Assembly: GCA_022711755.1 (NCBI GenBank)
Contig: JAKLEA010000001.1
Coordinates: 336,743 to 400,742 of the forward strand
From: Planctomycetota bacterium
GTDB taxonomy: Bacteria > Planctomycetota > Brocadiia > SM23-32 > JAKLEA01
Direction of reading: 5' to 3'
DNA length: 64,000 nucleotides
A program made the position numbers and the translations under genes. The notes beneath the pieces were generated by a model. The model searched no databases and was not told the DNA's origin. It saw only the letters and a list, made by a program, of their open reading frames with translations. Below, piece by piece: positions 1 through 18,973 of the stretch; within the stretch, counting starts at the first letter, position 1; every line of letters begins with the position of its first letter.

Positions 1-321
1 GAATGCCCACACGCATGGAAGATCGGGAGTAGCCGTCATCGTCGGGTCGGGCGACGCCGGAATAAAATCCGGCGGGAAAACGCCGAAATCGTTCTTGTAG
101 AGACCCATTCCGACGTCAATCTGCTGACACTCCTGCTTGGCGACGGTAATCCGCCCGCTCTTGCGCGCGCCTAGCAATGCCGGCAGCAGCAGGCCGGTCA
201 GCACCGCGATCACGCCAATCACGATGAGCATCTCCGCGAGCGTGAAGCCGTCGCGCCGCTGCGAACGAGGCCGACAAGCGGATTTTCTTCCAGTTCCCAC
301 GGATTTCCTCCGTTCCCGCAT
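1..321 (-). CDS. Prepilin-type pseudopilin/pilin (GspG-like), 5' part only. The gene runs off the window start. The ATG overlaps the gspF stop (TGATG).
   Basis: I translated the reverse complement by hand. It reads MRERRKSVGTGRKSACRPRSQRRDG|FTLAEMLIVIGVIAVLTGLLLPAL..., i.e. a class III signal with the G/FTLxE cleavage-methylation motif and a hydrophobic helix. It is absent from the ORF track because there is no stop inside the window. Confidence 0.6.
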   Translation of the reverse strand, partial: MRERRKSVGTGRKSACRPRSQRRDGFTLAEMLIVIGVIAVLTGLLLPALLGARKSGRITVAKQECQQIDVGMGLYKNDFGVFPPDFIPASPDPTMTATPDLPCVWAF

Positions 322-1556
322 CAACCGCCGCCCAGCGAACCCATCAGTTTGATCAGCGGCATGAACAGCGAAATGACGATGAAACCGCCGATGCCGCCCA
401 GCATGACGATCATCATCGGCTCGATCAGGCTCACCAGACCTTCGACTGCCACGTCCACTTCTTCATCGAAGACGTCTGCGACCTTCAGCAGCATCTTGTC
501 CAGTTCGCCCGTTTCCTCGCCGACCGATACCATGTTGCAAACCATATCATCGGTGACTTTTGCGGCCTTAAGCGGGTCGGCGATTGTCTCGCCCTCGCGG
601 ATGCTGTCATGAATGTTCTGAATTGCTCTGGCAAGAACGGCGTTTCCTGCCGTATCTCTAACGATGCCAAGCGCTTCCAGAATCGGCACACCGGACGCGA
701 TCAGCGTTCCCAGCGTGCGCGCGAAGCGCGAGATTGAGGCTTTATTGACGATGTTGCCGAACAGGGGAATCTTGAATTTAATCCAGTCAAGCACATAACG
801 TCCAGCGCTGGACATGCCGATTACCTTGAAGGCTATGAAGAACGCGAACGGCACAACTGGAATCATATACCAGCGCGTCTTGAATAATTCTCCCGCGTAC
901 ATCAATGCCTGTGTCATTCCGGGCAACTCGACGTTCATCTCCTGGAACATTTTTGAGAATTTTGGGATGATGAACACCATGATGCCTGACACGATCAGCA
1001 AGGCAATGGTCAGCACCGCGATCGGATAAATCATGGCGCCCTTGACGCGCCTTTTCAGTCGGGCGGACTTTTCTCGGAATTCAGCCAGACGTTGAAGAAT
1101 CACGTCCAGCACACCGCCCGCCTCTCCCGCGCGTATCATGTTAACATACAATTTATCGAACACCTTCGGATACTTGCCCATCGCTTCGGACAAACTGTTC
1201 CCGCTTTCAACGTCATCTGCCACATCCTGAAGCACGTTCTTGAGCACGCCTGGCTTCATCTGCTCATAGAGGACTCTCAGAGAGCGGACAATGGGTAGAC
1301 CGGCGTCCTGGAGCGTGGACAGTTGGCGAGTGAATGTGGTCAACTGCGCCTGACTCACACCGCCGAATGTGAACCCACGCTTTTTCTTCCCACCGGGTCC
1401 GGTTGCCGCCTTCTTGCCGGCTTTTTCTTTAACCTTTGTCGGAAACAGGTTCATCGCCCTTATCTTGGCGATGGCCTCATCAGTATTCCGGGCTTCGATC
1501 TCATCCCGGACAGCCTTACCTTGACCATTCATTGCTTCATACTGGAAAACGGGCAT
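321..1556 (-). CDS. Type II secretion / type IV pilus inner-membrane platform protein (GspF/PilC family)
   Basis: ORF 321..1613. The two T2SSF-type repeats are recognisable. The likely start is the internal MPVFQYEAMNGQG, which has AGGAG 8 nt upstream. Confidence 0.85.
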   Translation of the reverse strand: MPVFQYEAMNGQGKAVRDEIEARNTDEAIAKIRAMNLFPTKVKEKAGKKAATGPGGKKKRGFTFGGVSQAQLTTFTRQLSTLQDAGLPIVRSLRVLYEQMKPGVLKNVLQDVADDVESGNSLSEAMGKYPKVFDKLYVNMIRAGEAGGVLDVILQRLAEFREKSARLKRRVKGAMIYPIAVLTIALLIVSGIMVFIIPKFSKMFQEMNVELPGMTQALMYAGELFKTRWYMIPVVPFAFFIAFKVIGMSSAGRYVLDWIKFKIPLFGNIVNKASISRFARTLGTLIASGVPILEALGIVRDTAGNAVLARAIQNIHDSIREGETIADPLKAAKVTDDMVCNMVSVGEETGELDKMLLKVADVFDEEVDVAVEGLVSLIEPMMIVMLGGIGGFIVISLFMPLIKLMGSLGGG

Positions 1557-1785
1557 GGCAGGTACTCCTTGTCTATCACCGCATTGAAGCGGTAGACAGA
1601 TTGATCCTGACAAATGAAATCAGATTTGGAAGTTTGAAGGGGAGCAAGCAATAAAATGACGCGCCACATGCACGAACAATGCCATGCCAACCAATTATGT
1701 TGGCCGTGAGTCGCGAATGAATCATGGATATTTCATTTTTATGCGCGACACTTGGCATTCTAGACATTTCTTTGCCCTCAAATAA

Positions 1786-1815
1786 CCGGCCAAAATGTAA
1801 AGGCCGGCTTTTATT
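1786..1815 (-). terminator. GC hairpin (CCGGCC, 10-nt loop, GGCCGG) flanked by an A-tract and a T-tract. It is a candidate attenuator or bidirectional terminator within the gspF 5' leader.
   Basis: The inverted repeat is at 1786-1808. It is followed by TTTTATT on the plus strand and by TTATTTG on the minus strand. Confidence 0.35.
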
Positions 1816-1897
1816 GCTCTATCTGCAACCGGCGAACGCGCTTGCGCGCACTCAAGCCGGACTATTATATTCTGTCTCTCCTGCCCCTCTCTATCGT

Positions 1898-1925
1898 ATT
1901 ATACATTGTGGCAAGGAACAGTCAA
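1898..1925 (-). promoter_or_regulatory. Near-consensus sigma70-type promoter on the minus strand: TTGACT, 16 nt spacer, TATAAT
   Basis: The reverse complement of 1898-1925 reads TTGACTgttccttgccacaatgTATAAT. It lies in the 370-bp AT-rich gap between gspE and gspF. Confidence 0.4.
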
Positions 1926-1981
1926 GGGGCTGTTTTTCTGCCGTCTGTTTTTTATGCCGTCCGGCTGAATGGAACTGTCTT

Positions 1982-3712
1982 CTATTCTTCAACAAGGGTT
2001 TCGCGCGCCACTTCTTCGATTGTTGTCATACCGTCATAGATCGCCAGCAGTCCAGACTCGCGGAGGCTGCGCGTTCCGTATTTCCTTGAACATTCACGCA
2101 ATTCCTGAGTCGAAGCGTTAGTCAAGATGAGTTGCCGCATTTCATCGTTGAGCATTAGCATCTCAAATATCGCCATTCGCCCGCGATAGCCTGTGTTATT
2201 GCACTGGTCACAACCTCGCCCGAAAAAGAACTTCTTGCCTCGGACCTCTTCCGGGACAAGGCCAAGTTCCATGAGCAATTCTGTCGTAGGTTCAAATTCT
2301 TCCTTGCAGTTATTACAAATGCGCCTTACGAGACGTTGGCCGACAATGCCTTCTACGGTGGCACAGAGAAGGTACGGCTCCAGCCCCAGGTCCAGTAAAC
2401 GCGTCACTGCCGATGGCGTGTCATTCGTGTGCAGCGTTGTAAAAACCAAGTGCCCTGTCAGCGAGGCCTGGATGGCGATCTGGCCAGTCTCAACGTCACG
2501 GACTTCGCCGACAAGGATGATGTCCGGGTCCTGCCGCAGGATAGCGCGAAGGCAGCGCGCAAAAGTTACGCCTATATCCGAATTAATTTGCACCTGCATT
2601 ATGCCTTCCAAGTCATATTCCACAGGGTCCTCAGTGGTTATGATCTTTACATTAATGGCGTTCAATGCGTTCAGGCAGCCGTATAGAGTCGTCGTTTTTC
2701 CGGAGCCGGTAGGTCCGGTTACGAGGACAATCCCGTTTGGCTTTGCCATCAGAGTGCGCATATTTTCCAGTTCATCGGGCCGGAATCCGAGCTTTTCGAT
2801 GTCAAGCGCAACAACGCTGCGGTCAAGAACGCGCAACACGACGCTTTCGCCGAACATGGTCGGCAGGCATGATACACGCAGGTCAACTGGATTTCCTGAG
2901 ACATTCAGCTCGACACGACCGTCCTGTGGGCGGCGCCGCTCGGCGATATCCAGGCGCGACATGACCTTGATACGCGAGGTAAGCGCAAGCGCCAGATGCT
3001 TGGGAGGGGGAACCATTTCATACAGAACGCCGTCAACACGATATCTGATCTTAAATTCATCCTCGAACGGCTCAAAGTGAATGTCGCTGGCCTTATCCTT
3101 GATTGCCTGCAAAAGGATAAGGTTGAGGAGTTTTCTGACCGGGGCGATGTTGGCCATTTCCTCAAGACTGGCAATATCCACTGATTCCGACTGACTGGCG
3201 GAGAACTGGATGCCTTCATACTCCTTGTCAAGCTCGTCAATCAGGCCCTGAACGCTTTCAGTCGAATCCCGGTAGTATTTGTGTAATGCCCTGTTGACTG
3301 CATCTTCATTGCTGACGGAGCCTGTCACCTCGCAATCCAGCAGAAAGCGCAGATCGTCCAGCGTTTTCAAATGCATTGGATTGGCGAGGGCAACAGTAAG
3401 ATTCCCTTCGTGATAGGAAACCGGAATGACGCGATAAACTTGAGCAACGCTTGCGCTCACGCGATCAATAACCTCTGGTGGAATCTCAGTTTTGTCAAGG
3501 TCCACTACTTCCATGCCGGCCTGAACCGCAAGGGCCATGGTCACTTCTTCGTTGGTGACGTAGTTTAATTTCACCAGGATGGAACCGATGGCTCCTCCCC
3601 TCTCCTTCTGAATGGCCAGGGCTTCCTGAATCTGACTCTCGGTGACAAGGTGCATCTCCTTCAGTATCCTACCGAGGAGTTTCTTCGGTTGCTGTTCATC
3701 CATCTCCGGCAT
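1982..3712 (-). CDS. Type II/IV secretion ATPase, GspE/PilB family
   Basis: It has the Walker A motif GPTGSGKTTT, an N-terminal GspII_E_N-like domain, and a C-terminal Cys4 motif (CNNC...CDQC). GAGGAG lies 8 nt upstream of the ATG. Confidence 0.9.
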   Translation of the reverse strand: MPEMDEQQPKKLLGRILKEMHLVTESQIQEALAIQKERGGAIGSILVKLNYVTNEEVTMALAVQAGMEVVDLDKTEIPPEVIDRVSASVAQVYRVIPVSYHEGNLTVALANPMHLKTLDDLRFLLDCEVTGSVSNEDAVNRALHKYYRDSTESVQGLIDELDKEYEGIQFSASQSESVDIASLEEMANIAPVRKLLNLILLQAIKDKASDIHFEPFEDEFKIRYRVDGVLYEMVPPPKHLALALTSRIKVMSRLDIAERRRPQDGRVELNVSGNPVDLRVSCLPTMFGESVVLRVLDRSVVALDIEKLGFRPDELENMRTLMAKPNGIVLVTGPTGSGKTTTLYGCLNALNAINVKIITTEDPVEYDLEGIMQVQINSDIGVTFARCLRAILRQDPDIILVGEVRDVETGQIAIQASLTGHLVFTTLHTNDTPSAVTRLLDLGLEPYLLCATVEGIVGQRLVRRICNNCKEEFEPTTELLMELGLVPEEVRGKKFFFGRGCDQCNNTGYRGRMAIFEMLMLNDEMRQLILTNASTQELRECSRKYGTRSLRESGLLAIYDGMTTIEEVARETLVEE

Positions 3713-3743
3713 TTGGAGTCTCCTCGACTCAATCGCGTGGTTG

Positions 3744-5495
3744 TTATTCCTGATCCATTGCGCCCGCGATGCTGATCACTTCATCAATCGTGGTGACGCC
3801 TTGCAGCGCTTTGCGAACCCCGTCTTCTGTCAGCGTAAGCATGCCATGTGCGCGTGCGCGCGCGCGAAGCTCATGCGTCGGAGCTTTCTTGAAGGCAAGC
3901 TCGCGCAGTTCGGGGTTCATTTCCAGCATTTCTGAAATGGCGCAACGTCCTCTGTATCCCGTATCGTGACAGTAAGAACAACCTGTTCCTTTGAAGAGGG
4001 TTATGTCTCGCAGGTCATCCGGCCGAAGTCCCACAGCCATCAGCATTTTTGCGGGATATTCGTAAGGCTGCTTGCAGTTATCGCAAATCTTACGTACCAG
4101 GCGCTGCGCCATGATGGCCTGAATCGCGCTGGCCACAAGGAAAGGTTTCACGCCTATGTCTATCAGGCGTGCAATTGCGCTCGGAGCGTCATTCGTGTGC
4201 AGCGTGCTGAAAACAAGGTGTCCTGTAAGCGCCGCTGTTATTGCGATTTCCGCTGTTTCCTGGTCACGGATTTCTCCCACCAGGATGATGTTGGGGGCCT
4301 GGCGCAGCATGGCGCGCAGGATGGCGCCGAAAGTCCTTTGAATGTCTTCGCGAACCTCGCACTGGTTGATTCCGCTCAGGTTATACTCAACCGGGTCTTC
4401 GGCGGTGATGATCTTGCGGTCGGGACGGTTAAGTTCATTCAAGGCGGCATACAACGTGGTCGTCTTACCGGAACCGGTAGGCCCCGTCACAAGGAAAATT
4501 CCGTTGGGACGACGGATTATGCTCTGAAACCTTTGATAATCCGTTTCGTGGAATCCGAGGTCGGACAGATTCAAAAGAATGGACTCCTTCAACAGCAGGC
4601 GCATGACGACCGTTTCACCGTTGGTGGCAGGCATCACGCTGACGCGAAGGTCCAATGCCTTGCCGCCGGCTTTGATAGCGATACGTCCGTCCTGGCACTT
4701 GCGTTTTTCGGCTATATCCATCTTCGACATCAGTTTCACGCGAGCCAGCACGGCATTCTGCAATCTTTTCGGCGGGCTTTCGATCTCCTGGCACTCGCCG
4801 TCAATTCGGTACCTGATTCTGACGCGGTTGGCCATTGGTTCGATGTGGATATCGCTCGCCCTGTTGCGAACCGCCTCGCCGATTAACATCGTCACCAGGC
4901 GGATGATCGGCGCCGAATCGGCTTCGTCACCGGCGCCCGGAGCGCCGACGGTCTTCTTGGATTCTTCGTCCATGCCCTCGGAGACCGTCCCCTCATCAAG
5001 GTTAGAAAATGTTGCTTCGCTGCTGGTGAACTCCTGGAGCATGTTGTCAACCGTTGATTCTTCGCCGCCGTAATATTGTTCGATTGCCTCCTCGATCTGT
5101 TCCGGCGGGGCCAGAACCGGTTGCACGTCCGATTCAAGGATGAAGCGAAGACTGTCAACAGCAAAGAGGTCGAGGTCCGGCATGGCAACGCGTATGACGC
5201 CGTTTTCCTTGCTGATCGGCATGATGCGGTGATTCAGGGCTGTCTGCTTGGGCACGGAGTCAATGGCTTCTACGCTGATTTCAACTTCGCCAAGGTCAAC
5301 GACAGGGATATCGAACTGTTCTCCCACGCACTGGAGGACATCCATCTCCCTCGCAAAGCCTAGTTTTACAAGAGCTTCACCCAGTTTGATCTTTTCGGCA
5401 GACTTCTGCTGGAATTCCAGGCCTCTCTTGAGCTGATCCTTGGTTATTGTGCCGCGATCCACCAACATCTGCCCTATCAACTTCCGTTTTGACAT
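3744..5495 (-). CDS. Type II/IV secretion ATPase, GspE/PilB family (tandem paralogue)
   Basis: It has the Walker A motif VTGPTGSGKTTT and a Cys4 motif (CDNC...CSYC). The ORF extends to 5516; the likely start is MSKRKLIG, which has GGGAG upstream. Confidence 0.85.
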   Translation of the reverse strand: MSKRKLIGQMLVDRGTITKDQLKRGLEFQQKSAEKIKLGEALVKLGFAREMDVLQCVGEQFDIPVVDLGEVEISVEAIDSVPKQTALNHRIMPISKENGVIRVAMPDLDLFAVDSLRFILESDVQPVLAPPEQIEEAIEQYYGGEESTVDNMLQEFTSSEATFSNLDEGTVSEGMDEESKKTVGAPGAGDEADSAPIIRLVTMLIGEAVRNRASDIHIEPMANRVRIRYRIDGECQEIESPPKRLQNAVLARVKLMSKMDIAEKRKCQDGRIAIKAGGKALDLRVSVMPATNGETVVMRLLLKESILLNLSDLGFHETDYQRFQSIIRRPNGIFLVTGPTGSGKTTTLYAALNELNRPDRKIITAEDPVEYNLSGINQCEVREDIQRTFGAILRAMLRQAPNIILVGEIRDQETAEIAITAALTGHLVFSTLHTNDAPSAIARLIDIGVKPFLVASAIQAIMAQRLVRKICDNCKQPYEYPAKMLMAVGLRPDDLRDITLFKGTGCSYCHDTGYRGRCAISEMLEMNPELRELAFKKAPTHELRARARAHGMLTLTEDGVRKALQGVTTIDEVISIAGAMDQE

Positions 5496-5553
5496 GAACA
5501 TTACTCCCGGACGCAAACAACACGAATGACTGGTTACGTCCGAATGTTATTCG

Positions 5554-8121
5554 TTATGGCTTACGTGGTTCCTTGCCGGCGTCCTTTGCGCAACGGAAAC
5601 CGGTGCTTTTCTCCACCTGGTGAATGCTGGCTGTGCGCCGCGTAGTAGTCGCAATTCCCTTGATCGGTCCTCCACGCAGCATGGCCGTTGTTGATGAGGA
5701 GGAATACCGTCCTGAGCACCATTCCCAGACATTACCCAGCATATCCATTGCGCCAACTGGGCTTACACCTTGAAGGTATTTGTTGACCGGGGTCGTATGT
5801 CCGGCAATCAAGTTACATTTCTTGATGTCGAAGTCCTCGCCCCAGGGAAATTTTCGTCCGTCCGTTCCGCGGGATGCCCGCTCCCACTCCGCCTCGGAAG
5901 GCAGTCTTTTGCCCATCCATTCGGCATAAGCCTGGGCATCGGTGTAACTGACGTTTGTAACCGGATGCCGCTCCATGTCGGCGGGGAATTGTCCGTTTTG
6001 CCAGTGCGGCGGGGGGCGATGCCCGGTTGAGATTACGAAAGCGGCATAATCTCCATTCGTCACGGGGTATTTATCAATGAAGAAAGCCGGGAGATTGATT
6101 TTCTCTCCCCTGCGAAGTAACCCGCGTTTCTCGTCACCATATATGAACTCACCTTCGGGCACAAGTATCATGCTTTTGATGCCATGCTTGATGCGCACAA
6201 CCCTAAGCAGCTCCTCAACCTGCGGTTCCTGTCCAAACTTCTGCTTAAGCTCATCAAGTTCCAGCGATGCCGCCGTCAAGTCCCCAATTTTAAGAAGATT
6301 AGCGACTTCGGCCAGTCTGGCCTTCAAATGGCCCGCCCTGGTGACGTCGGCTTTCTTTGATGCTGCTTCAGCTATTTGTTTCAATTCGTCGTTATGTCGG
6401 TCAAGGTCAAGACCTTCCTTTGCGAGTTGCAAAGCCTCATCGTAATGGCCTTTTCCCAGAGCCATTTTCGCGGCCATCAGTTTTGCCGCCGCATCGTCTT
6501 TATTCATACTCTTGACGCGCGCGGTGGCATAAGTAAAAGCCTTGCGCATCTCCTCATTCTGAGGATCAAGTTCAACTGCCTTTTTTGCCGCCGCTGCCAC
6601 AGAACGGTAGTCCTGCTCCGCCCACGCTGCCCTGGCGTCACGGATTGCGAAAGCCAGGTCTCTTTCGCGGATTTTGCCCGGCAGAATCTCAAGAACCTTA
6701 ACAAGATTCACATCGGACGGACGCAGTTCCAGCGCTCTTTTTATGAATACTTCCGCTTCCTCATAATTGTATTCATCAAGGCATTTCTGCGCCTTTGAGC
6801 GGAATTCTTCAAACCACTGGGCAATTTCCTGCGCTTGATTGAGAAGTTTTTTTGCGTCGGCATTATCGGGAACCAGTTCCAATGCGCCCTCAAACTCGCT
6901 GACTGCCGCAGAATAATTATGCTTCTCCATTGCTTCCTTGCCCGCGTTCAACTTTGCAAGCATCTTGATATATGAACGAAGGTCTAAACCGCATCCGCCG
7001 CAGAATTTTGATCGTATATGATTTTCAACGGAGCACTTGGGACATTCTTCAACCAGCCTTGTGCCACAAGACTCGCAATACTTCGCCTCCGGCGGATTGC
7101 GGAAATTACATTTGAGACAGGCCACAGGTCCGGCGCTGTCGGTCTGCTTGTCGCCTAGAAGACCATCAATTGCCTCGATGACTTCCCGCGCATTCTGGTA
7201 GCGGTCATCCGGGCTTAATTCCGTCGCTTTGCCAATGATGTTGCGTACATCATCAGGAACTTTATTGAGGTCCTTGCGGATCGGCGGACTGCCGACAACC
7301 AGTTCATAGAACGTGTTGCCAAGCGCATATATATCCGCCCTGTGGTCAATATTCACGGCGTCAAACTTCTGTTCCGGAGCCATGTAAGCCATTGTGCCGA
7401 CCGTGTACCCGCTCTCCGTAACTTCTTCTTTTGCGCCGACTTGCGCAAAGCCGAAATCAACAATCTTCGGCGTGTCGTCGTCTGTCAGCAGGACATTGGC
7501 CGGTTTCAGATCCCGGTGAATTACACCCTTTTCATGGGCATGAGCGAGTCCTTCGCATACTGCGCGGATAATTTTCACGGAACGCATCAGGGGCATCGCT
7601 CCTTCGCGCTTTACAAGGCTGTGCATATCCTCCCCGTCAACGTACTCCATCGAAATGAAGTAACCGGCATCATCGTGATCCACGTTATAAACGCGTATGA
7701 TATTAGGGTGATTCAGCTTTACTATTGCCCTTGCTTCCACGAGAAAACGCTGAAGACTTTTCTCATCCTTGATCACTCGCTTATGCAGGCGTTTTAATGC
7801 GACCGTGGTGTCGAGAATCTTGTCATAAGCCCTGTAGACATTTGCCATTCCGCCACGGCCAAGCTTGTCAAGGACCGTATAGCGGCCCCCAGCGTCATTG
7901 CTTTTGAACTGATCTGTCCTCACCTCAACCGTTGACGCAGCGCCCTGACTGTCCGTGGTGGAACTTCGCCGTGAATCCTGTTGCTCCAATTTCGTGCCGC
8001 AGTGCGGGCAAAACTGCCCTTGGATATCAAGCGTAGCCGAACAGTTCGGACAAACAAGTTTCGCACCCGAATCGCCGGAGCGAAGCTTCTGATTCTGCGC
8101 TTTTGGTTCGGCTCCACTCAC
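5554..8121 (-). CDS. Ser/Thr protein kinase with an N-terminal zinc ribbon, a second zinc ribbon, TPR repeats and a C-terminal FGE-sulfatase (formylglycine-generating-enzyme-like) domain
   Basis: The kinase catalytic loop HRDLKPANVLL and DFG are present. The zinc ribbons are CPNC...CPHC and CLKC...CESC...CPKC...CGGC. TPR-like helical repeats follow. The C-terminus carries FGE-domain hallmarks (YPVTNGDYAAF, GNVWEWC). The start codon is GTG. Confidence 0.8.
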   Translation of the reverse strand: MSGAEPKAQNQKLRSGDSGAKLVCPNCSATLDIQGQFCPHCGTKLEQQDSRRSSTTDSQGAASTVEVRTDQFKSNDAGGRYTVLDKLGRGGMANVYRAYDKILDTTVALKRLHKRVIKDEKSLQRFLVEARAIVKLNHPNIIRVYNVDHDDAGYFISMEYVDGEDMHSLVKREGAMPLMRSVKIIRAVCEGLAHAHEKGVIHRDLKPANVLLTDDDTPKIVDFGFAQVGAKEEVTESGYTVGTMAYMAPEQKFDAVNIDHRADIYALGNTFYELVVGSPPIRKDLNKVPDDVRNIIGKATELSPDDRYQNAREVIEAIDGLLGDKQTDSAGPVACLKCNFRNPPEAKYCESCGTRLVEECPKCSVENHIRSKFCGGCGLDLRSYIKMLAKLNAGKEAMEKHNYSAAVSEFEGALELVPDNADAKKLLNQAQEIAQWFEEFRSKAQKCLDEYNYEEAEVFIKRALELRPSDVNLVKVLEILPGKIRERDLAFAIRDARAAWAEQDYRSVAAAAKKAVELDPQNEEMRKAFTYATARVKSMNKDDAAAKLMAAKMALGKGHYDEALQLAKEGLDLDRHNDELKQIAEAASKKADVTRAGHLKARLAEVANLLKIGDLTAASLELDELKQKFGQEPQVEELLRVVRIKHGIKSMILVPEGEFIYGDEKRGLLRRGEKINLPAFFIDKYPVTNGDYAAFVISTGHRPPPHWQNGQFPADMERHPVTNVSYTDAQAYAEWMGKRLPSEAEWERASRGTDGRKFPWGEDFDIKKCNLIAGHTTPVNKYLQGVSPVGAMDMLGNVWEWCSGRYSSSSTTAMLRGGPIKGIATTTRRTASIHQVEKSTGFRCAKDAGKEPRKP

Positions 8122-8282
8122 GAATCAACCCATGAATCAATTAAAACAAAATCATCCGGGCACAAAACTCCCTTTTCAGGAAACGCCCGCTCGAAGAAAA
8201 GCATCTACTCTTTCGGACATGTCGGAAGAGTATTGTAATTCTGAACACGGACATGGTCAAGCGAGCGCATGACAGGATTATT

Positions 8283-9764
8283 TCAATCAGTATAGCCTGG
8301 AATGATCTGATGTTTGCGTGACCAGCCGGGATCCTGAATCAGCAGGCATTCATCAGGATCATCGGGCAACCGTGGTTGCTGATACTGTTTCCACGAATCG
8401 CCTTCAATGTGCTCCGTTACATCGCGATCACGGAAGAAACCTATTGCGCGCGACCTCATCTCCTTCAAGGCCTCCGCGCAAAAGACAATGCCTGCGCGGT
8501 TGCGGGTTTCCTCCGGGTCCTGCTCCCGATCAATCAGAAATTCTTTCCGATCTGGAGCGGAGTAGAAATATTTCCATCGCCGGTTCAGCGCCATGTATAC
8601 GCCGTGTTCGCGCCGGTGGAACTGGCTGAATATGGTCCTTCCTGAATGTTCTCCGGCGGCGACACGGGCCAGATCAACGCCGTCAGAGCGTCCCGCATCT
8701 TCAGACATTCCGGCCGCGTTCAAGATGGTCGGAAGGATGTCAACCAAGCTTGTTGGTTCGTCACATGTCGCACTGGCGGGCACTCTTCCCCGGAACCGGG
8801 CGATCATGGGAATCCGCGCAGCTGAATCCAACATGCTGCGTTTGCCGAAACAGTCGTAGTCGCCCAGCATTTCGCCGTGGTCGGAAGTGAACAGAATGAG
8901 GGTGTTTTCCGCCATCCCGCGCTGTTCCAGAACGTCAAGCATCCTGCCGACCTGATAATCAATGAAAGATATGCAGGCATAGTAGTACGCCTTGATGCAG
9001 CGCAAGAGATTGTTGTCAATGCCGTTGTCGCGATACTTGTACCTGTTCTGGAACTTGTTGATGTAGGTATGAAGCGATTCAGGCTGATGGGGGCGCTTAG
9101 GCAACGGCATCAATGGAGCGCGGTAGAGCTTGTTCCAGGGCGTGGGGGGCGAAAACGGAGGGTGGGGGTGGATGAAACTGGAAAAGAGAAAGAACGGTTG
9201 AGACAAGCTCGCATTCTTCAGGAATTCGATGCTCCGGTCCCCCACCCAATTTGTCGCGTGAAGACGGGCTGGAAGTTGCGATGGCTGGGGAATGTAATAC
9301 ATCTCACCACGAGGTCCCATCGGATCATAGACGTGTCCGAACCCGTTATCCCGCAGAAAGCAGAGATAGACGTCATCTTCAACGCGCCCGCCGAGTTCCT
9401 CCTGACGCTCGCGGGTCTGGAATCCGCGCAGCGCATTAGTGTCTCGCGTAAAATGCATCTTGCCAATTCCGTGGGTCCGATACCCGGCATCGGTGAGGCT
9501 CTGCATGAAAGTGGGGCGGTCGTCCGGCATCGCGTCACAGTTATCGGCGCAGCCGGTGTTGGCCGGATACTGCCCGAAAATGAGCGAACACCTTGCGGAT
9601 ACGCAGACGGGCGACGGCGTGTAGGCGCTTTTGAAGAGCGTTCCGCCAGCGGCAAGGCGGTCGAGGTTGGGTGTGCGCATCACGGGATTGCCGGCGGCGC
9701 GGATAGTGTCCCATCGCTGCTGATCCGTGAAAATGAGGAGTATGTTGGGGCGCGTTTCCGCCAT
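8283..9764 (-). CDS. Sulfatase (arylsulfatase family)
   Basis: The N-terminus reads PNILLIFTDQQRWDT, and the active-site region reads SPVCVSARCSLIFGQYP. Its C-x-S-x-R is an atypical variant of the C-x-P-x-R motif. Confidence 0.8.
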   Translation of the reverse strand: MAETRPNILLIFTDQQRWDTIRAAGNPVMRTPNLDRLAAGGTLFKSAYTPSPVCVSARCSLIFGQYPANTGCADNCDAMPDDRPTFMQSLTDAGYRTHGIGKMHFTRDTNALRGFQTRERQEELGGRVEDDVYLCFLRDNGFGHVYDPMGPRGEMYYIPQPSQLPARLHATNWVGDRSIEFLKNASLSQPFFLFSSFIHPHPPFSPPTPWNKLYRAPLMPLPKRPHQPESLHTYINKFQNRYKYRDNGIDNNLLRCIKAYYYACISFIDYQVGRMLDVLEQRGMAENTLILFTSDHGEMLGDYDCFGKRSMLDSAARIPMIARFRGRVPASATCDEPTSLVDILPTILNAAGMSEDAGRSDGVDLARVAAGEHSGRTIFSQFHRREHGVYMALNRRWKYFYSAPDRKEFLIDREQDPEETRNRAGIVFCAEALKEMRSRAIGFFRDRDVTEHIEGDSWKQYQQPRLPDDPDECLLIQDPGWSRKHQIIPGYTD

Positions 9765-9790: not shown

Positions 9791-10501
9791 TCAGTCGCCG
9801 TTTGACACTTCCGCCGGCCAGTTGTCCATTGCTTCCTTGAGGAGAGCTTTGATCCTGGGGGCAGCCTGCTCGACGAAGACGCGCGCAAGCATTGCGCCAT
9901 GTTCCGCGGTCGCTTCCTTGGCGTCCTCCGATATTCCGTCGCGGGAGTGAATAAGCCGCCCCTGCGGCAGGCGCGATAGGTCAACAAGGTCCGGACGATA
10001 GTGCATCATGAGGGACGTCTCATTCTTTCCGCCGTGATCCCCTCCCCTGACGTTCACCCATCCCGCCGGCTCATAGTCTGCCATGGCAAGAACGCGGGGA
10101 TAACGGTGTTTCTCAGTGAATCGCTCAACTGCCGCCTTTACGGTTTCGACATGCTTTGCGCCGTAGTGCCCCATGAGGATCACGATCATCTTGAAGCCTT
10201 CGTCGTACAGGTTCTCAAGGTGTTCGTAGACATACTGATTGACAAGTTCCTTGCTGAACTCAAAGGTATGCCTGAAGCGGGCGCACGGCTTCATTGTCTG
10301 ATATCCGCAGTAGACCGGGGGCAGGACGACTCCGCCCGTCACCGCGCATAATTCAAGAGCCATGCGATGGGCCTTCAACGTGTCAAGGCCGATCGGATTC
10401 TGGGGGCCGTGCCACTCGTGCGAACCCCAGACCAGGTATGCCAGCGGACAAGTCCGTAGAACATGGTTGATCTCGCGCGGCTTCATTTCTTCGTATTTCA
10501 T
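9791..10501 (-). CDS. Creatininase/creatinine amidohydrolase family protein
   Basis: The motif HEWHGPQNPIGLDT is characteristic of the family. The likely start is the internal MKYEEM; the ORF extends to 10561. Confidence 0.5.
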   Translation of the reverse strand: MKYEEMKPREINHVLRTCPLAYLVWGSHEWHGPQNPIGLDTLKAHRMALELCAVTGGVVLPPVYCGYQTMKPCARFRHTFEFSKELVNQYVYEHLENLYDEGFKMIVILMGHYGAKHVETVKAAVERFTEKHRYPRVLAMADYEPAGWVNVRGGDHGGKNETSLMMHYRPDLVDLSRLPQGRLIHSRDGISEDAKEATAEHGAMLARVFVEQAAPRIKALLKEAMDNWPAEVSNGD

Positions 10502-10626
10502 TGAGAGAACCTTTCTGCGCAGCATAATGAAAGCGGCTACCGTCCTGCCTGCTGCGCGCAAAACAGAAAACTCTTCTGATTCTTCACGCTATGCAATTGC
10601 CATGCCGGGAAGTTACCATATCGGAC

Positions 10627-15598: not shown

Positions 15599-18500
15599 TT
15601 ATTTTACTCCGGAATCGCTCACCCAGGACTTTGAGCTTGTCAGCCTCATTTTGAAGTTCTGAGCCGCGTTGGCGACGCCCTTGTCATCGTTTGCCGCAAG
15701 CAGGATAAACTCAACCGGACGTCCCGTCTTCCCGAACCGTTCCGCCAATGGTCCGGATATTCCATCCCATGAAACCCGACGCACGACGTAACGTTCTCTG
15801 CCGGGGAAAGATTCCGAAAAGGCCGGTCCTTCCGACATGCCCAGCAGCATATCCAGCAGACTGTCACGCGCGCGGTTTCCTATTACAATGACAGTCTGCG
15901 CCGAGGCGGAAGGAGCATATAGCGTTTCATCAATAATTATTCCGGCAAGATCGGACGTTCCTTCAGAAAGAGACGATATGTAGCTCTTTATGCTCTGGGC
16001 CTGCGCCCAGTCAGTTTTTACGTTGTTGCGTGCCACTATCTGAGCCACAAGGTTTCCGTTGTCCACTATCGGAAGATCCTGCCATCGGATGACAGGTTTC
16101 ATGTCGCGGGCGCGTTTCTGGAATTCTGAGAGAGCGTTCAGCAACTTTTCGCGCGCGTTGCAAAGCCTCAGTTGAAGCGGCTCCGTCTTCGGATCATCCG
16201 ATAGCGCAAGAACTTCCGCCAGAACCTCCTGCGCTGTTTCTTCGGGATTTCTGCTCCCGGCGTCACGCAGATCAGGACTTAGATTTTGCAGAAGATTCAG
16301 GTAGCGCGCGTCATTAATGCCGTCCCTGACTGCGTCCCATGCGGGCGAACAAATCAGGATATTGCCTGTCACAGAAGTCTCTGCGGGAGACGCTCCGGAT
16401 GCGCCGCCTGCTGACGCGGCGGAATCAGTCGGCGCGTATTCTCTGACCTTTATGGGCGTCCAGAGTTTTCTGAATTCCTTGCGCCCGGCCAGCGCAAGCC
16501 AGCAATCCCGTCTGGCATCCCATGGAGATGAAACGCCATAATTGTGCCACAGGCCGATGGAATCGCCCGATGCGGGGGCAAGGAGACCTTGCTGAAGCGC
16601 CGTAGAAGGGATCGTTCTCGCATTGAACTCCCATTGCCACACGCTTTGCCTGGCCGACCTGAGCAAGGTGATTCCCGAAGGGTCAGGGACCTTTTCCGTG
16701 AAAGTTGCGAAAGGTTTCCACCCCAGAGCGGAAAGCTCCTTGAGCGCCGGGATATAGGCATTCAGGAAATTGTCCGTGGTCAACTGGCCAGTCAGCCAGA
16801 GCGAAGTTTCCCGGTAACCTTTATCGCGAAGGTATTGCCGCAATTCGCCCCAATACCATCTCATGATGCGGGCAGGATCGTTCATCACTGCCGGAGAAGG
16901 CCCGGCGGCGGAAGCAAATTTGTCATATGGGGCCTCAACGCAGACTTCAAGAAGGCCGGCATAAATTGCGAAATCGGTATAAACGTCAAGCTTGGAGAAA
17001 TCCAGCGGGGGAAGCTGAGGCTTGGTTAAGAAGTCCGGTGTGGCTGCAATAACTTCATCAAGCGTGCGATTTGTGCCGCGAATCATGACAATCTTGTTGC
17101 CGAACAAATCAAATGGAAGGACAATGCCGCCACAACCATGTTGTGCCGCAGTTGTGAAATATCGTTTCAAGCGGACGGGATCCCAGGAAGGCATTTCGCC
17201 ATTGGCCGGCATGCCGAGAACCACCGCGCCGCCCACCGCGCGAACAGAATGAACCCTAATCCTGATCGGTATCTGAGCGAGCACTTCATCCGATGAGACA
17301 ATAGTCAACGCGCTTGTGTATTCGCCCGGCGGCAGGCCTGAACTGTCAAAGGTTAATGCCGCAATCCGATTCTCGCCAGGATTCAAATTGAAGGATTTTC
17401 GCTCAATCAGTATCGGATAAGGTTCCGACGACGCGTTTTGCGATTCGATGTTCTCGACAATTCTGGCTTTTATGGCGTCCACAGCAGGCAAGGAGGCCAA
17501 TGACGGCTTTTCACCAGGATTGTCGCTTGCAGTCTTCAAATCAGAGACAGTCATTCGGATATTCGTTCTCAGCCTGCCGGAGCGGAGAGCAAACCAGAAT
17601 GCGTAATACTCCGCCATGCCGAGGTCCGCGTCAATTTTCACGCAGGGCATTATGGTTTCTCCGCCCGGCGGAATAAATACAGTCAAAGCGCCGTCAGTGG
17701 CAACGGGCGCAACTTTGTCAACAACGGGTTCCGGTTTCCACTCCGGGATGGCGCTGGCGATGAAACCCTTCGGATTCTCACGTTGCGGCCCTGAGGCCAT
17801 GGCTCCATCTTCAGTGATTCGCATGTCAAAGGCAGAGAGCCTGTCACTCTCCGTCCCTGCGCGAAATGCGATTTCATAACTCCCCTTCGGCGGAACCGGC
17901 CAATACCAGACGGTTTGAATGGTGGCTGCCGGATCCCATCCCGCTGGGATTATAAAATCATGCTTTCCAATCGTCTTTTCCCCCGCTCGCGCAATAACTG
18001 AGACGGGAAATTCAGCTCGCGGCTTGAAATTCAACAATCCTGTCCAGGATATCCTGACGGCGTTCTTTCCCTGGAGCAGACGCGCCGAAGCGACCATGTC
18101 CTTCCCCGCAAAGGAAACCGAATCCATGCCACGCAACGGGATTATCCATATTGTTGTTGTTCCAGACTTGCCTGCCGGCAAGCCCGCAGAACGCAATTCA
18201 AGCATCGGAGACTGCCCGGGGGAGGCTCTGCGAAGAACAAATGATTGCAGAGTGTCATAATCCGTCACGAGCGCGCAGCCCGCGCCATCTGTGCCAAGCC
18301 ATGCGGCCCAGCCGGCAAGCGGCGAATCATTGATCGTATCGGTCTGCAGGTCCTTGACGTTGGCAGCCGTAACGCCTGAAGTGGTGGGCCAAAGCACGCG
18401 AAGCTCAGGATCGGCAAGCGGGTATTCCATCTGAATAGCCGGACGCAGTTCAGTGGGCGTTGTGTTGCGCACTGTTATTTCACAACCCAACGCCGCGCAT

Positions 18501-18973
18501 CCTTCCCTGAGAAAATATCGCTTTACTGTGCGCCCGGGATTGGGAGCTTCCTCCTCCAAAGCGACGCTCGCTTCCGGCGGAGTTCTGGAGATATGTCCGA
18601 CCTTGTACCTTCTTCCAGGCTCATCCAATTCCGTATGCCAGCCGCGGGAACCACTCGCCGTCTGAACAAGTTCCCTATGGCTCAGGCGGTCAACAATGGA
18701 TACTATTGACCCTGAGCGGGTCGGAGATATAGCCACCGAGATATAATCATTTGCAAGGATATAAGACTTCGAGGTTCCATCTTCTTGTTCAAGGCATATC
18801 AATTCAGCGCGCGCGGGGGCCGGCAATATGAGCGGCATCAAGAGAATGGCGGCAATCGCCGGGAAACACAGGCGAGATGGTGGCTCTGAACCTTCTGAAG
18901 TGTTTATAAATTGAATCCTATCGCTCATGTCCGCTTCCAGAAGCGAAGAGACTGTGCGACCGCCAAAATTCAA
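15599..18973 (-). CDS. Large secreted hypothetical protein (1124 aa)
   Basis: It is a long ORF with a signal-peptide-like N-terminus. No family was recognised. It is the last gene of the ispG-dxr-rseP-lipoprotein string. Confidence 0.5.
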   Translation of the reverse strand: MNFGGRTVSSLLEADMSDRIQFINTSEGSEPPSRLCFPAIAAILLMPLILPAPARAELICLEQEDGTSKSYILANDYISVAISPTRSGSIVSIVDRLSHRELVQTASGSRGWHTELDEPGRRYKVGHISRTPPEASVALEEEAPNPGRTVKRYFLREGCAALGCEITVRNTTPTELRPAIQMEYPLADPELRVLWPTTSGVTAANVKDLQTDTINDSPLAGWAAWLGTDGAGCALVTDYDTLQSFVLRRASPGQSPMLELRSAGLPAGKSGTTTIWIIPLRGMDSVSFAGKDMVASARLLQGKNAVRISWTGLLNFKPRAEFPVSVIARAGEKTIGKHDFIIPAGWDPAATIQTVWYWPVPPKGSYEIAFRAGTESDRLSAFDMRITEDGAMASGPQRENPKGFIASAIPEWKPEPVVDKVAPVATDGALTVFIPPGGETIMPCVKIDADLGMAEYYAFWFALRSGRLRTNIRMTVSDLKTASDNPGEKPSLASLPAVDAIKARIVENIESQNASSEPYPILIERKSFNLNPGENRIAALTFDSSGLPPGEYTSALTIVSSDEVLAQIPIRIRVHSVRAVGGAVVLGMPANGEMPSWDPVRLKRYFTTAAQHGCGGIVLPFDLFGNKIVMIRGTNRTLDEVIAATPDFLTKPQLPPLDFSKLDVYTDFAIYAGLLEVCVEAPYDKFASAAGPSPAVMNDPARIMRWYWGELRQYLRDKGYRETSLWLTGQLTTDNFLNAYIPALKELSALGWKPFATFTEKVPDPSGITLLRSARQSVWQWEFNARTIPSTALQQGLLAPASGDSIGLWHNYGVSSPWDARRDCWLALAGRKEFRKLWTPIKVREYAPTDSAASAGGASGASPAETSVTGNILICSPAWDAVRDGINDARYLNLLQNLSPDLRDAGSRNPEETAQEVLAEVLALSDDPKTEPLQLRLCNAREKLLNALSEFQKRARDMKPVIRWQDLPIVDNGNLVAQIVARNNVKTDWAQAQSIKSYISSLSEGTSDLAGIIIDETLYAPSASAQTVIVIGNRARDSLLDMLLGMSEGPAFSESFPGRERYVVRRVSWDGISGPLAERFGKTGRPVEFILLAANDDKGVANAAQNFKMRLTSSKSWVSDSGVK

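Follow-up and report, generated by a model that had tools for sequence, protein, structure and literature searches.

A Ser/Thr kinase beside a pilus-type gene cluster carries an FGE-like domain predicted to be inactive and is probably unrelated to the sulfatase next to it

In a 64,000-nucleotide stretch of a Planctomycetota genome (hereafter, the window), a Ser/Thr kinase that ends in an FGE-like domain is encoded next to a sulfatase whose motif reads CVSAR, with serine in the usual place of proline. Does the kinase mature or control the sulfatase, or do two unrelated genes merely adjoin? A first-pass annotation proposed either an unusual maturation route for the sulfatase or an FGE-like domain that is a ligand sensor rather than a maturase. 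Taken as a whole, the locus is probably best read as a chance association of functionally unrelated neighbours, a kinase tied to a pilus cluster and a sulfatase with a polymorphic motif. The features are collected in Table 1.

Table 1. Features of the kinase–sulfatase locus (coordinates within the window)
Feature	Coordinates	Strand	Basis and remarks
T2SSF/PilC platform protein	321..1613	(-)	Pfam; 66% identical to L088 counterpart
Second MshEN + T2SSE ATPase of cluster	1982..3712	(-)	Pfam; 70% identical to L088 counterpart
MshEN + T2SSE (PilB/GspE/MshE-like) ATPase	3744..5516	(-)	Pfam; 37 bp downstream of kinase
Hanks-type Ser/Thr kinase, 855 aa	5554..8121	(-)	ORF + Pfam
FGE-like (C-type-lectin-type) domain, residues ~649-848	5578..6177	(-)	Pfam PF03781, E 3.8e-42
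TPR-like helical array, residues ~385-640	6202..6969	(-)	Several Pfam TPR models
Double zinc ribbon, residues 335-378, eight Cys	6988..7119	(-)	Pfam DZR, E 1.1e-14
Protein kinase domain, residues 81-322	7156..7881	(-)	Pfam Pkinase, E 1.5e-49
N-terminal zinc ribbon, residues 22-45	7987..8058	(-)	Pfam Zn_ribbon_3; Cys 24, 27, 38, 41
Sulfatase–kinase spacer	8122..8282	(-)	TTGACC-17-TACAAT + hairpin
S1-family sulfatase, 493 aa, no signal peptide	8283..9764	(-)	Pfam PF00884
Creatininase-family amidohydrolase	9791..10561	(-)	Pfam PF02633; 27 bp upstream of sulfatase

The kinase combines five regions in the order zinc ribbon, kinase domain, double zinc ribbon, TPR array and FGE-like domain. The first-pass annotation had read this order from the translation, and the Pfam domains match it; in the C-terminal half the Pfam hits run from ~397 to 580 (TPRs) and from 649 to 821 (FGE-sulfatase). 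The catalytic loop HRDLKPANVLL, likewise named there, lies at residues 202–212 (DNA 7486–7518), and the kinase motifs are intact (K110, HRD 202–204, DFG 222–224 and an APE-type motif). Twelve cysteines form three CxxC...CxxC ribbons, and all 12 are invariant across four orthologues. The TPR region aligns solely to three full-length orthologues, and the full architecture is found in four sequence clusters among the matches listed; an identical protein (P0121) is present in JGI assemblies. Neither the kinase nor the sulfatase contains a detectable transmembrane segment or signal peptide, and no 19-mer of the kinase exceeds a hydrophobicity of 0.92. The kinase is predicted to be soluble and cytoplasmic.

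Structural modelling indicates that the C-terminal domain keeps the FGE/C-type-lectin fold. In Foldseek searches its AF2 model (pLDDT 83.8) matched the catalytic FGEs of S. coelicolor (2q17/6muj), T. curvata (6s07) and human (SUMF1), as well as human pFGE/SUMF2 (PDB 1y4j, TM about 0.8), with TM scores of 0.78–0.84; CalU17 was also matched (TM about 0.8). The catalytic FGEs share PF03781 and 25–29% identity with the domain, and target-normalised TM scores against them are just ~0.6 because ~70 residues are missing from it. The active-site loop region of the domain is about 25 residues short. The loop that bears the Cu-binding Cys pair of true FGEs (C336/C341 in the human sequence, which we verified against the PDB; C272/C277 in S. 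coelicolor) is deleted at ~5644–5676, so both catalytic cysteines are gone. This region holds no conserved Cys among the four orthologues, and a C-x4-C pair is missing from all 46 of the kinase-fused FGE-like domains that were sampled; it occurs in just 2 of the 316 FGE-like segments from the 150 nearest representatives, 34 of which, the query included, are fused to a kinase domain. Alignment with catalytic FGEs, a check suggested in the first-pass annotation, thus finds the catalytic residues not retained.

Without the copper-binding Cys pair, the FGE-like domain is predicted to be unable to make formylglycine and so not to be a maturase. Its best sequence match in the PDB is the inactive paralogue SUMF2/pFGE (E 4.9e-24), which similarly keeps this fold but lacks both catalytic cysteines. 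SUMF2 is an ER-luminal, stand-alone protein, whereas the present domain is the C-terminal part of a cytoplasmic kinase. With 215 versus ~270 residues it is also shorter, and the active-site loop that is substituted in SUMF2 is deleted here. These observations favour the suggestion that the domain senses rather than matures. The C-terminal CLec/FGE-type domain of other kinases is described as a module that binds ligands, and FGE activity is absent from TvpA (PMC5758913, PMC7517822, PMC10907252). Cyanobacterial and other kinase–CLec/FGE-type proteins (targets of diversity-generating retroelements (DGRs) and their paralogues) and TvpA of Treponema denticola likewise end in a domain regarded as such a module, which in the kinase fusions follows an N-terminal Ser/Thr kinase (PMC7517822, PMC5758913); among homologues of the domain, fusion to a kinase is common. 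The present kinase differs from the kinase–CLec proteins in adding three zinc ribbons and a ~250-residue TPR array, and from the DGR targets in that no DGR was found in the window (no TR/VR repeat, and no RT among the large ORFs). Most likely, the FGE-like domain, TPR array and zinc ribbons together form a ligand- or protein-binding input module.

Turning to the sulfatase, the motif C54-V-S-A-R58-C59 lies at 9588–9605, with CVSAR encoded by TGC GTA TCC GCA AGG (9591–9605). Each of its columns lines up with the FGly motifs of choline sulfatase 6fny (CAPAR) and 7oz8 (STPAR), so its identification as the active-site motif was right. The accompanying statement that FGE and anSME substrates carry CxPxR was incomplete: the published core is CX[P/A]XR, and CXAXR-type sulfatases are matured by anSME (PMC2459300). 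In SulfAtlas this position is Pro in 87% of sequences and Ala in 369 of 4058, with each other residue below 1% (PMC5066984). The closest solved or curated relatives are the Bacteroides S1 sulfatase 7oz8, BetC (6fny, S1 family) and the PRK13759 arylsulfatase, to which the protein aligns over its full length with metal-site and catalytic residues kept (DQ..., GKMH, HPH, SDHG). Unlike these, it has no signal peptide.

Serine at the motif position is rare overall yet common within this sulfatase clade. We sampled 195 cytoplasmic members, which are widespread (Chloroflexota, Poribacteria, Planctomycetota and others). The Cys, Arg and Gly of the motif are invariant, with Cys54 and Arg58 present in all 194 of the residues scored, and the +2 residue is Pro in 83, Ser in 59 and Ala in 52, with at least 24 independent Pro/Ser/Ala switches on a neighbour-joining tree. 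Wherever the locus DNA was read, the Ser codons are all TCN, a single base change away from codons for Pro or Ala. Given this switching and codon usage, the serine is a polymorphism of the clade. Relative to 7oz8, BetC and PRK13759, the clade motif is CV[PSA][AS]RCS, with a near-invariant Cys after the Arg and Thr replaced by L/Y/H/F. The commonest setting of clade members is a sugar-related one, amid genes for intracellular glycoside hydrolases: the neighbours of the 26 closest clade loci outside Poribacteria include GH51, GH38, xylose-isomerase-like and GFO/IDH/MocA genes, and in the window a GH10 gene lies next door.

How, then, would such a sulfatase be matured? We found no anSME or true FGE gene in the 64-kb window. 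Because Pro, Ser and Ala replace one another freely in the clade, serine would be tolerated by whatever maturase serves its sulfatases; that enzyme would most likely be a radical-SAM anSME-type maturase, of the kind already known for CxAxR, encoded elsewhere in the genome. The anSME-matured Cys-type S1 sulfatases with CxAxR (Carlson et al. 2008) share with the present protein a Cys nucleophile, an Arg at +4 and a small non-Pro residue at +2, and differ in having Ala instead of Ser and in lacking the extra near-invariant Cys. As anSME maturation is cytoplasmic and oxygen-independent, it would suit a metagenome-assembled genome assigned to Candidatus Brocadiia. Maturation is therefore probably proline-independent and anSME-like. 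The proposal of a non-standard route gains slight support in this form; its gene-specific element falls away, since the whole clade switches residues and CxAxR proteins are known anSME substrates.

The two genes had been annotated as divergent, which they are not: both lie on the minus strand, the sulfatase upstream of the kinase, with a 161-bp spacer. The spacer carries a sigma-70-like TTGACC-17-TACAAT (8260–8232) followed by a hairpin with an 11-bp stem (8206–8232). Both are consensus matches alone, and promoter-like sites in the region are no commoner than in shuffles. With a promoter of this kind, the sulfatase and kinase may still be co-transcribed. The creatininase-family gene is probably co-transcribed with the sulfatase; no homologue of it was found in 80 sulfatase loci, so that pairing is not conserved elsewhere.

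There is no conserved pairing of the kinase with the sulfatase. No kinase gene was found in the 1.28 Mb that flank 79 sulfatase loci, 71 of which have at least 3 kb of downstream sequence; all 14 of the Ser-variant loci are among the 79. Conversely, no sulfatase neighbours the kinase gene in the three other orthologues retrieved (a search with the TPR region returned no further ones) or in four more distant kinase/FGE-like proteins, against a background in which any sulfatase-like ORF occurs at 3 of 88 FGE-like or kinase loci. The co-conservation that the first-pass annotation suggested testing is thus not seen.

What is conserved lies on the other side of the kinase. The kinase orthologues P0303 and P0318 (39–40% identity) are each followed directly, on the same strand, by a gene for an MshEN-T2SSE ATPase 61–67% identical to that at 3744–5516. 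At the P0318 locus (L088) a second such ATPase, a T2SSF gene and then N_methyl genes follow in the same arrangement as in the window, where the cluster runs past the window start with N_methyl (pilin-like) genes (L081 gene table). Among the orthologues retrieved, the kinase–ATPase adjacency is therefore conserved in three groups, the window's included, all Planctomycetota where named; the fourth, P0122, lacks an adjacent ATPase gene, and the upstream side of the kinase differs at every orthologue locus. The adjacency could be inherited synteny rather than function.

Could the kinase and sulfatase nonetheless work together? The FGE-like domain might dock, as pFGE would, on the unmodified sulfatase motif, with the kinase sensing or controlling how the sulfatase matures or acts; phosphorylation of Ser56 would be one way. 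The adjacency of the genes on one strand across a short spacer, the cytoplasmic location of both proteins, SUMF2/pFGE as the nearest PDB sequence relative and a phosphorylatable Ser in the usual Pro place all suit this idea. We nevertheless judge it very unlikely, given the missing pairing at the sulfatase loci (all Ser-variant ones among them) and at the orthologous and more distant kinases, a motif Ser interchangeable with Pro and Ala, the promoter-like site between the genes and the loss of the active-site loop region. Extremely unlikely, in our estimate, is that the domain is an enzyme with other chemistry, such as an EgtB/PvdO-style oxidative one, that matures the CVSAR sulfatase in a non-standard way. 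NCBI names the protein a 'SUMF1/EgtB/PvdO family nonheme iron enzyme' (Candidatus Brocadiia), NCBIfam gives partial matches to EgtB, SenA and OvoA, and in Foldseek the domain matches EgtB, OvsA and PvdO over their FGE-like parts. The NCBIfam matches, however, are all far below cutoff (EgtB 84 versus 360 bits) and cover the shared fold alone; the Cys pair is absent, the conserved positions outside the fold core include no candidate for a catalytic residue, and the sulfatase pairing is not conserved. Moreover, the iron ligands of EgtB sit in an N-terminal DinB-like domain, which the kinase protein lacks.

Two further readings concern each protein on its own. The 'sulfatase' could share the fold but hydrolyse phosphonate monoesters or phosphodiesters, or it could be an FGly-independent form, which would explain the relaxed motif. 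It matches phosphonate monoester hydrolases (2w8s, 2vqr, 4upk) and NCBIfam PehA, shares their D-Q type metal site, deviates further from the motif at Cys59 and in having Phe for Thr, and scores below the cutoff of every named sulfatase equivalog (PRK13759 295 versus 481 bits, choline sulfatase 231 versus 433). We consider this unlikely: carbohydrate and choline sulfatases match better (7oz8 1.5e-55; PRK13759 arylsulfatase, with the score just given), the invariant Cys54 and Arg58 argue for an FGly nucleophile, phosphonate monoester hydrolases themselves use FGly, and the genomic context is one of glycoside hydrolases. The kinase, in turn, might be an anti-phage or conflict sensor rather than a pilus regulator, either a defence kinase resembling PD-T4-6/Stk2 or a CLec 'antigen sensor' of the sort proposed for DGR-diversified kinases. 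PADLOC PD-T4-6 models match it with up to 258 bits; mad6, Stk2 and PglW models and NCBIfam MAD6 and PglW match it too. CLec/FGE-type domains have been proposed as invasion sensors (PMC10907252), and a related kinase/FGE-like gene (P0186) adjoins bAvd and an RT. This seems quite doubtful, as every defence-model match is confined to the generic kinase domain (residues ~76–330), no TR/VR repeat was found and no RT occurs among the window's large ORFs, the adjacent genes include no other defence genes, and the conserved neighbour is a pilus/secretion cluster.

We thus favour a kinase that senses a ligand and is linked to the pilus cluster. Binding at its sensor domains would prompt such a kinase to regulate, through phosphorylation, a machine of the type IV pilus or type II secretion-like kind. 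Eukaryote-like kinases that modulate T4P-type motility or secretion offer a parallel in concept: the Ser/Thr kinase SpkA of Synechocystis affects pilus-type motility (PMC4390875), as do ArnC and ArnD of Sulfolobus (PMC5300886). They have no accessory-domain architecture in common with the present kinase, whose link to the pilus machinery is genomic adjacency in three Planctomycetota lineages.

The interval 5554–9764 contains two long ORFs, a sulfatase and a multidomain kinase, both encoded on the minus strand. The first-pass annotation of this region was largely right in its observations, except that it had the sulfatase placed divergently; the two genes are in fact arranged in tandem. A GH10 glycoside hydrolase lies on the opposite strand beyond the creatininase-family gene that precedes the sulfatase. 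Public databases already list both the kinase and the sulfatase protein, under a MAG labelled Candidatus Brocadiia. The spacer between the two genes contains, at 8206–8260(-), a sigma-70-like TTGACC-17-TACAAT sequence, followed directly by an inverted repeat with an 11-bp stem (TACTCTTCCGACATGTCCGAAAGAGTA). This repeat could be an operator or a 5′-UTR structure, and the promoter-like site, a match to the consensus only, hints at a separate kinase transcript.

Genes surrounding the kinase and sulfatase (window positions) and domains of the kinase (residues)
Feature	Position	Strand	Details
T2SSF platform gene	321–1613	-	Pfam
Second MshEN+T2SSE ATPase	1982–3712	-	Pfam
MshEN+T2SSE ATPase	3744–5516	-	37 bp downstream of kinase; Pfam
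Kinase	5554–8121	-	855 aa; 161 bp downstream of sulfatase
Sulfatase	8283–9764	-	493 aa
Creatininase-family gene	9791–10561	-	27 bp upstream of sulfatase
Kinase, zinc ribbon	residues 22–45		Pfam
Kinase, Pkinase	residues 81–322		Pfam, E 1.5e-49
Kinase, double zinc ribbon	residues 335–378		Pfam
Kinase, TPR models	residues ∼397 to 580		Pfam
Kinase, FGE-sulfatase (PF03781)	residues 649–821		Pfam, E 3.8e-42

Pfam agrees with the kinase architecture proposed from the first reading, in which a zinc ribbon, a kinase domain, a second zinc ribbon and a TPR array precede a C-terminal domain of the formylglycine-generating enzyme (FGE) type. The catalytic loop HRDLKPANVLL, also recognized then, occupies residues 202–212, and the Hanks-type Ser/Thr kinase motifs are intact (K110, H202-R-D, D222-F-G, and the APE-type P249-E) and invariant in four full-length orthologues. 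These are P0121, which is identical to the window kinase, P0122, P0303, and P0318, the only four sequence clusters with the full architecture; a search for full-length kinase homologues was dominated by generic kinases, with one true orthologue among the matches listed. The 12 Cys residues of the kinase make up three CxxC...CxxC ribbons, and all 12 are invariant in the orthologues. Because the mean Kyte-Doolittle value of its 19-residue windows never exceeds 0.92, the kinase is soluble and cytoplasmic.

Judged by its sequence, the FGE-like domain is not a maturase. In a MAFFT alignment with human FGE, both active-site Cys residues are gone with a deleted loop: the C-x4-C loop after the GGS motif (human C336/C341) is absent, and the kinase reads GGPIKG---------IATTTRR. 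The human FGE C-terminus aligned here agrees exactly with PDB entries save for its first two residues, including GGSYMCHRSYCYRYRC with C336 and C341. In the same alignment, human SUMF2, the inactive FGE paralogue (pFGE), has non-Cys residues at the catalytic loop positions. SUMF2 is also the best PDB sequence match of the domain (E 4.9e-24), and the alignment to T. curvata FGE is broken across exactly the catalytic-loop segment. The four full-length orthologues share no Cys between the WEWC and GFRC motifs, C-x4-C is found in none of the 46 FGE-like domains of kinase homologues, and among the 150 closest representatives it occurs in only 2 of 316 such segments. The missing Cys pair supports the second of the two alternatives raised by the first-pass annotation, that the domain is a sensor and not a maturase. 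The PF03781 fold is common to this domain and to catalytic FGE/SUMF1 (TM ∼0.8), but the domain lacks the Cu-binding Cys pair of catalytic FGEs. A cryptic non-Cys maturase activity is scarcely credible.

An AlphaFold model of the FGE-like domain (pLDDT 83.8) matches solved FGEs, pFGE, CalU17, ToxD, and the FGE-like parts of EgtB, OvsA, and PvdO in Foldseek. Query-normalised TM scores are 0.72–0.84 for most matches (∼0.6 for some EgtB chains), whereas target-normalised scores are only ∼0.6 against stand-alone FGE-like proteins and fall further with the larger EgtB/OvsA chains; because of this asymmetry, the model suggests a trimmed FGE fold. The FGE-fold superfamily is large (116,618 representatives at E ≤ 1e-3) and kinase fusion is common within it: 34 of the 150 closest representatives, the query included, have a kinase domain, and many matches in the full-length kinase homologue search are likewise kinase and FGE-like fusions. 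In the literature the FGE-type C-type-lectin domain is regarded as a binding module, TvpA being without FGE activity (PMC5758913), and such domains have been proposed as sensors in conflict systems (PMC10907252). The public names of these proteins, ‘SUMF1/EgtB/PvdO family nonheme iron enzyme’ for the kinase (NCBI HOX36580.1) and ‘formylglycine-generating enzyme required for sulfatase activity/...’ for its orthologue P0122 (JGI), both reflect the non-catalytic C-terminal domain and mislead. Automatic naming of such kinases invites false inferences on sulfatase maturation.

In an Anaerolineaceae MAG (P0186; L084, 3342–11843), a bAvd-family gene and an 80-aa FGE-sulfatase fragment come after the kinase/FGE-like gene, with a reverse transcriptase at a greater distance. 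The arrangement is DGR-like and speaks for kinase-fused FGE-like domains being variable binding modules. The window kinase was itself considered as a DGR variable protein, with the VR in its CLec domain, and rejected: no direct repeat in the 64-kb window involves 5554–6200. No reverse transcriptase is present among the window ORFs scanned.

By comparison with its orthologues, the kinase opens a conserved pilus or type II secretion-like block. For both P0303 (locus L087, in a cluster from Planctomycetota MAGs) and P0318 (loci L088–L090), the next same-strand gene is an MshEN+T2SSE ATPase, as in the window. These two kinases are only 39–40% identical to the window kinase, and their ATPase is 61–67% identical to that at 3744–5516. 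Next in L088 come a PilT-like ATPase, a second MshEN-T2SSE (70% identical to 1982–3712), T2SSF (66%), N_methyl genes, and a T2SSJ-like gene. Likewise, the type IV pilus/T2SS-like set beside the window kinase comprises T2SSE twice with MshEN and T2SSF (by Pfam), with pilin-like N_methyl genes further downstream in L081, a longer assembly of the same organism. P0122 is an exception, with no ATPase beside the kinase orthologue. Upstream, the three loci differ: the window has the sulfatase, L088 a divergent MoxR-DUF58-transglutaminase set, and L087 a PilZ gene. The sulfatase thus lies at a synteny break. We consider the conserved position of this rare architecture, leading a planctomycetal pilus/secretion cluster, to be modestly new.

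The cluster occupies 321–5516(-) and runs past the window start (L081 12627–22568), in synteny with the clusters after P0303 and P0318. We take the N-terminus of its first ATPase (KLIGQMLVDRGTITKDQLKRGLEFQQ) to resemble the c-di-GMP-binding MshEN motif. A MoxR-type AAA ATPase lies upstream of, and divergent from, two kinase orthologues (L088 2578–9742, with DUF58 and transglutaminase, and the P0122 contig); no MoxR-type gene is beside the window kinase.

The sulfatase has the expected fold (PF00884, E 1.9e-48) and no signal peptide. Its closest solved relatives are the Bacteroides S1 sulfatase 7oz8 (E 1.5e-55), choline sulfatases, and phosphonate monoester hydrolases. It falls under every curated NCBIfam cutoff (230.8 versus 433.45 for choline sulfatase TIGR03417; 294.7 versus 481 for arylsulfatase PRK13759), and the metal-site and catalytic residues TDQ, GKMH, HPH, and SDHG are conserved in its full-length alignments to solved S1 sulfatases. 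It is unlikely that the protein is a non-sulfatase hydrolase of the same fold. The seven Bacteroides structures of bioRxiv 2021.07.23.453482 include 7oz8.

Because C54-V-S-A-R58 aligns exactly with CAPAR of the choline sulfatase 6fny and STPAR of 7oz8, the maturation motif had been placed in the right columns. It departs from the SulfAtlas pattern [CS]-x-[PA]-x-R at +2, which is Ser56 (codon TCC). The published consensus admits Pro or Ala there (C-x-[P/A]-x-R), and maturation of CxAxR-type enzymes is ascribed to the radical-SAM enzyme anSME (PMC2459300). In SulfAtlas, the +2 position is Pro in 87% and Ala in 369 of 4058 sequences, with each other residue at <1% (PMC5066984), so Ser is rare overall at this position.

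Within the clade of this sulfatase, Ser at +2 is ordinary. Its 120 closest homologues (59–70% identity) carry CVPAR (at least 68), CVSAR (44), or, in a few cases, CISAR, CVAAR, and CIAAR, and Poribacteria relatives carry CVASR. A 195-sequence clade alignment has Cys54, Arg58, and Gly64 invariant and position 56 as Pro in 83, Ser in 59, and Ala in 52 sequences; on a neighbor-joining tree, Fitch parsimony requires at least 24 changes. All Ser codons at the genome loci with DNA read are TCN, one step from CCN or GCN. Since Pro, Ser, and Ala interchange at position 56, the motif proline should be dispensable for the whole clade, and Ser56 says nothing specific about the window locus. A near-invariant Cys follows the motif Arg directly (C-V-x-x-R-C-S, 191/195; window 9588–9605(-)), and L, Y, H, or F stands in place of the Thr usual in the L-T-G element. 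This Pro/Ser/Ala lability and the extra Cys are modestly new, and this well-populated cytoplasmic clade is a convenient natural test set for the real requirements of anSME-type or other maturases.

The most likely role of the sulfatase is to remove sulfate, in the cytoplasm, from a sulfated sugar or oligosaccharide that has been imported. Cys54 would be matured by an enzyme that does not depend on the motif proline, and an anSME encoded elsewhere is the most plausible one. The 64-kb window contains no anSME, FGE, or second sulfatase, and phmmer searches of the three domains against all six-frame ORFs returned no further sulfatase, FGE, or kinase. The only radical-SAM ORF of the window, 50801–51787, was considered as an anSME and rejected, being of the Radical_SAM_C type with no other Pfam domain. 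Literature searches on anSME with CXAXR and on Poribacteria sulfatases yielded nothing useful.

The suggested coupling and co-conservation of kinase and sulfatase found no support. We compared 80 genome loci of the sulfatase clade (51–69% identity) from Anaerolineae, Brocadiia, Thermomicrobiales, Clostridia, Armatimonadota, Gemmatimonadales, Paenibacillus, and many Poribacteria, with flanks totalling 1.28 Mb and at least 3 kb downstream of the sulfatase in 71 of 79 loci. A kinase is present in 0/79 sulfatase loci, including all 14 Ser-variant loci, and an FGE-like ORF occurs in only two, ∼9 kb off and in both cases without the Cys pair. The creatininase and GH10 neighbours are not conserved at these loci. 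Neighbour clustering was dominated by within-Poribacteria synteny, and the 26 closest non-Poribacteria loci were therefore analysed apart. Their recurrent neighbours are GH51 arabinofuranosidases, GH38 mannosidases, and xylose-isomerase-like and GFO/IDH/MocA genes; the 25 most frequent Pfam families of these neighbours include no radical-SAM, FGE, or kinase family. From the side of the kinase, no sulfatase lies near any of the three other orthologues (P0122, P0303, and P0318) or near four more distant kinase/FGE-like proteins. A weak sulfatase-like ORF is found in only 3 of 88 further loci, which serve as background for sulfatase co-occurrence only; the metagenome locus scan was driven by the generic patterns GNVWEWC and PKIVDFG, with no true orthologues among the matches listed.

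On these counts, a true functional pair of kinase and sulfatase is very improbable. Such a pair might work if the dead FGE-like domain kept its ancestral grip on the unmodified sulfatase motif, as pFGE is thought to, and recruited the kinase, with phosphorylation of Ser56 gating formylglycine formation or activity. This would be a phospho-switch on sulfatase maturation, and we regard it as barely conceivable. Likelier, and possible if still tentative, is that the Zn-ribbon/TPR/FGE-like kinase senses a ligand and is dedicated to regulating a planctomycetal pilus or secretion machine. The kinase is intact, its FGE-fold domain non-catalytic, its location cytoplasmic, and its adjacency to the ATPase cluster conserved, all of which is directly established; from there, the zinc ribbons, TPR array, and FGE-like domain would bind a ligand or protein in the cytoplasm, after which the kinase would phosphorylate a component or regulator of the machine. 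Ser/Thr kinases acting on pilus-type machines have precedents in SpkA of Synechocystis (PMC4390875) and ArnC/ArnD of Sulfolobus (PMC5300886). A role as a defence or conflict sensor is quite unlikely: PADLOC PD-T4-6 models match the kinase strongly, but these matches are confined to the generic kinase domain (residues 76–330), and no defence genes adjoin it. A kinase that repeatedly heads a pilus/type II secretion-like cluster is a concrete candidate regulator, and such regulation is little studied in Planctomycetota.

Elsewhere in the window, three long ORFs lack a Pfam match at E ≤ 1e-5: 15599–18973(-) (1124 aa), 37134–39320(-) (728 aa), and 51804–53510(-) (568 aa). Three other ORFs encode combinations of domains. 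These are a 946-aa protein joining a carbamoyltransferase (N and C domains) to a SAM methyltransferase (29315–32155(+)), a 1372-aa protein with FG-GAP/beta-propeller repeats and a GH2-type TIM barrel (32943–37061(+)), and a 570-aa protein in which a PLP-dependent (PALP) enzyme domain is fused to an AhpC/TSA peroxiredoxin domain (60439–62151(+)).
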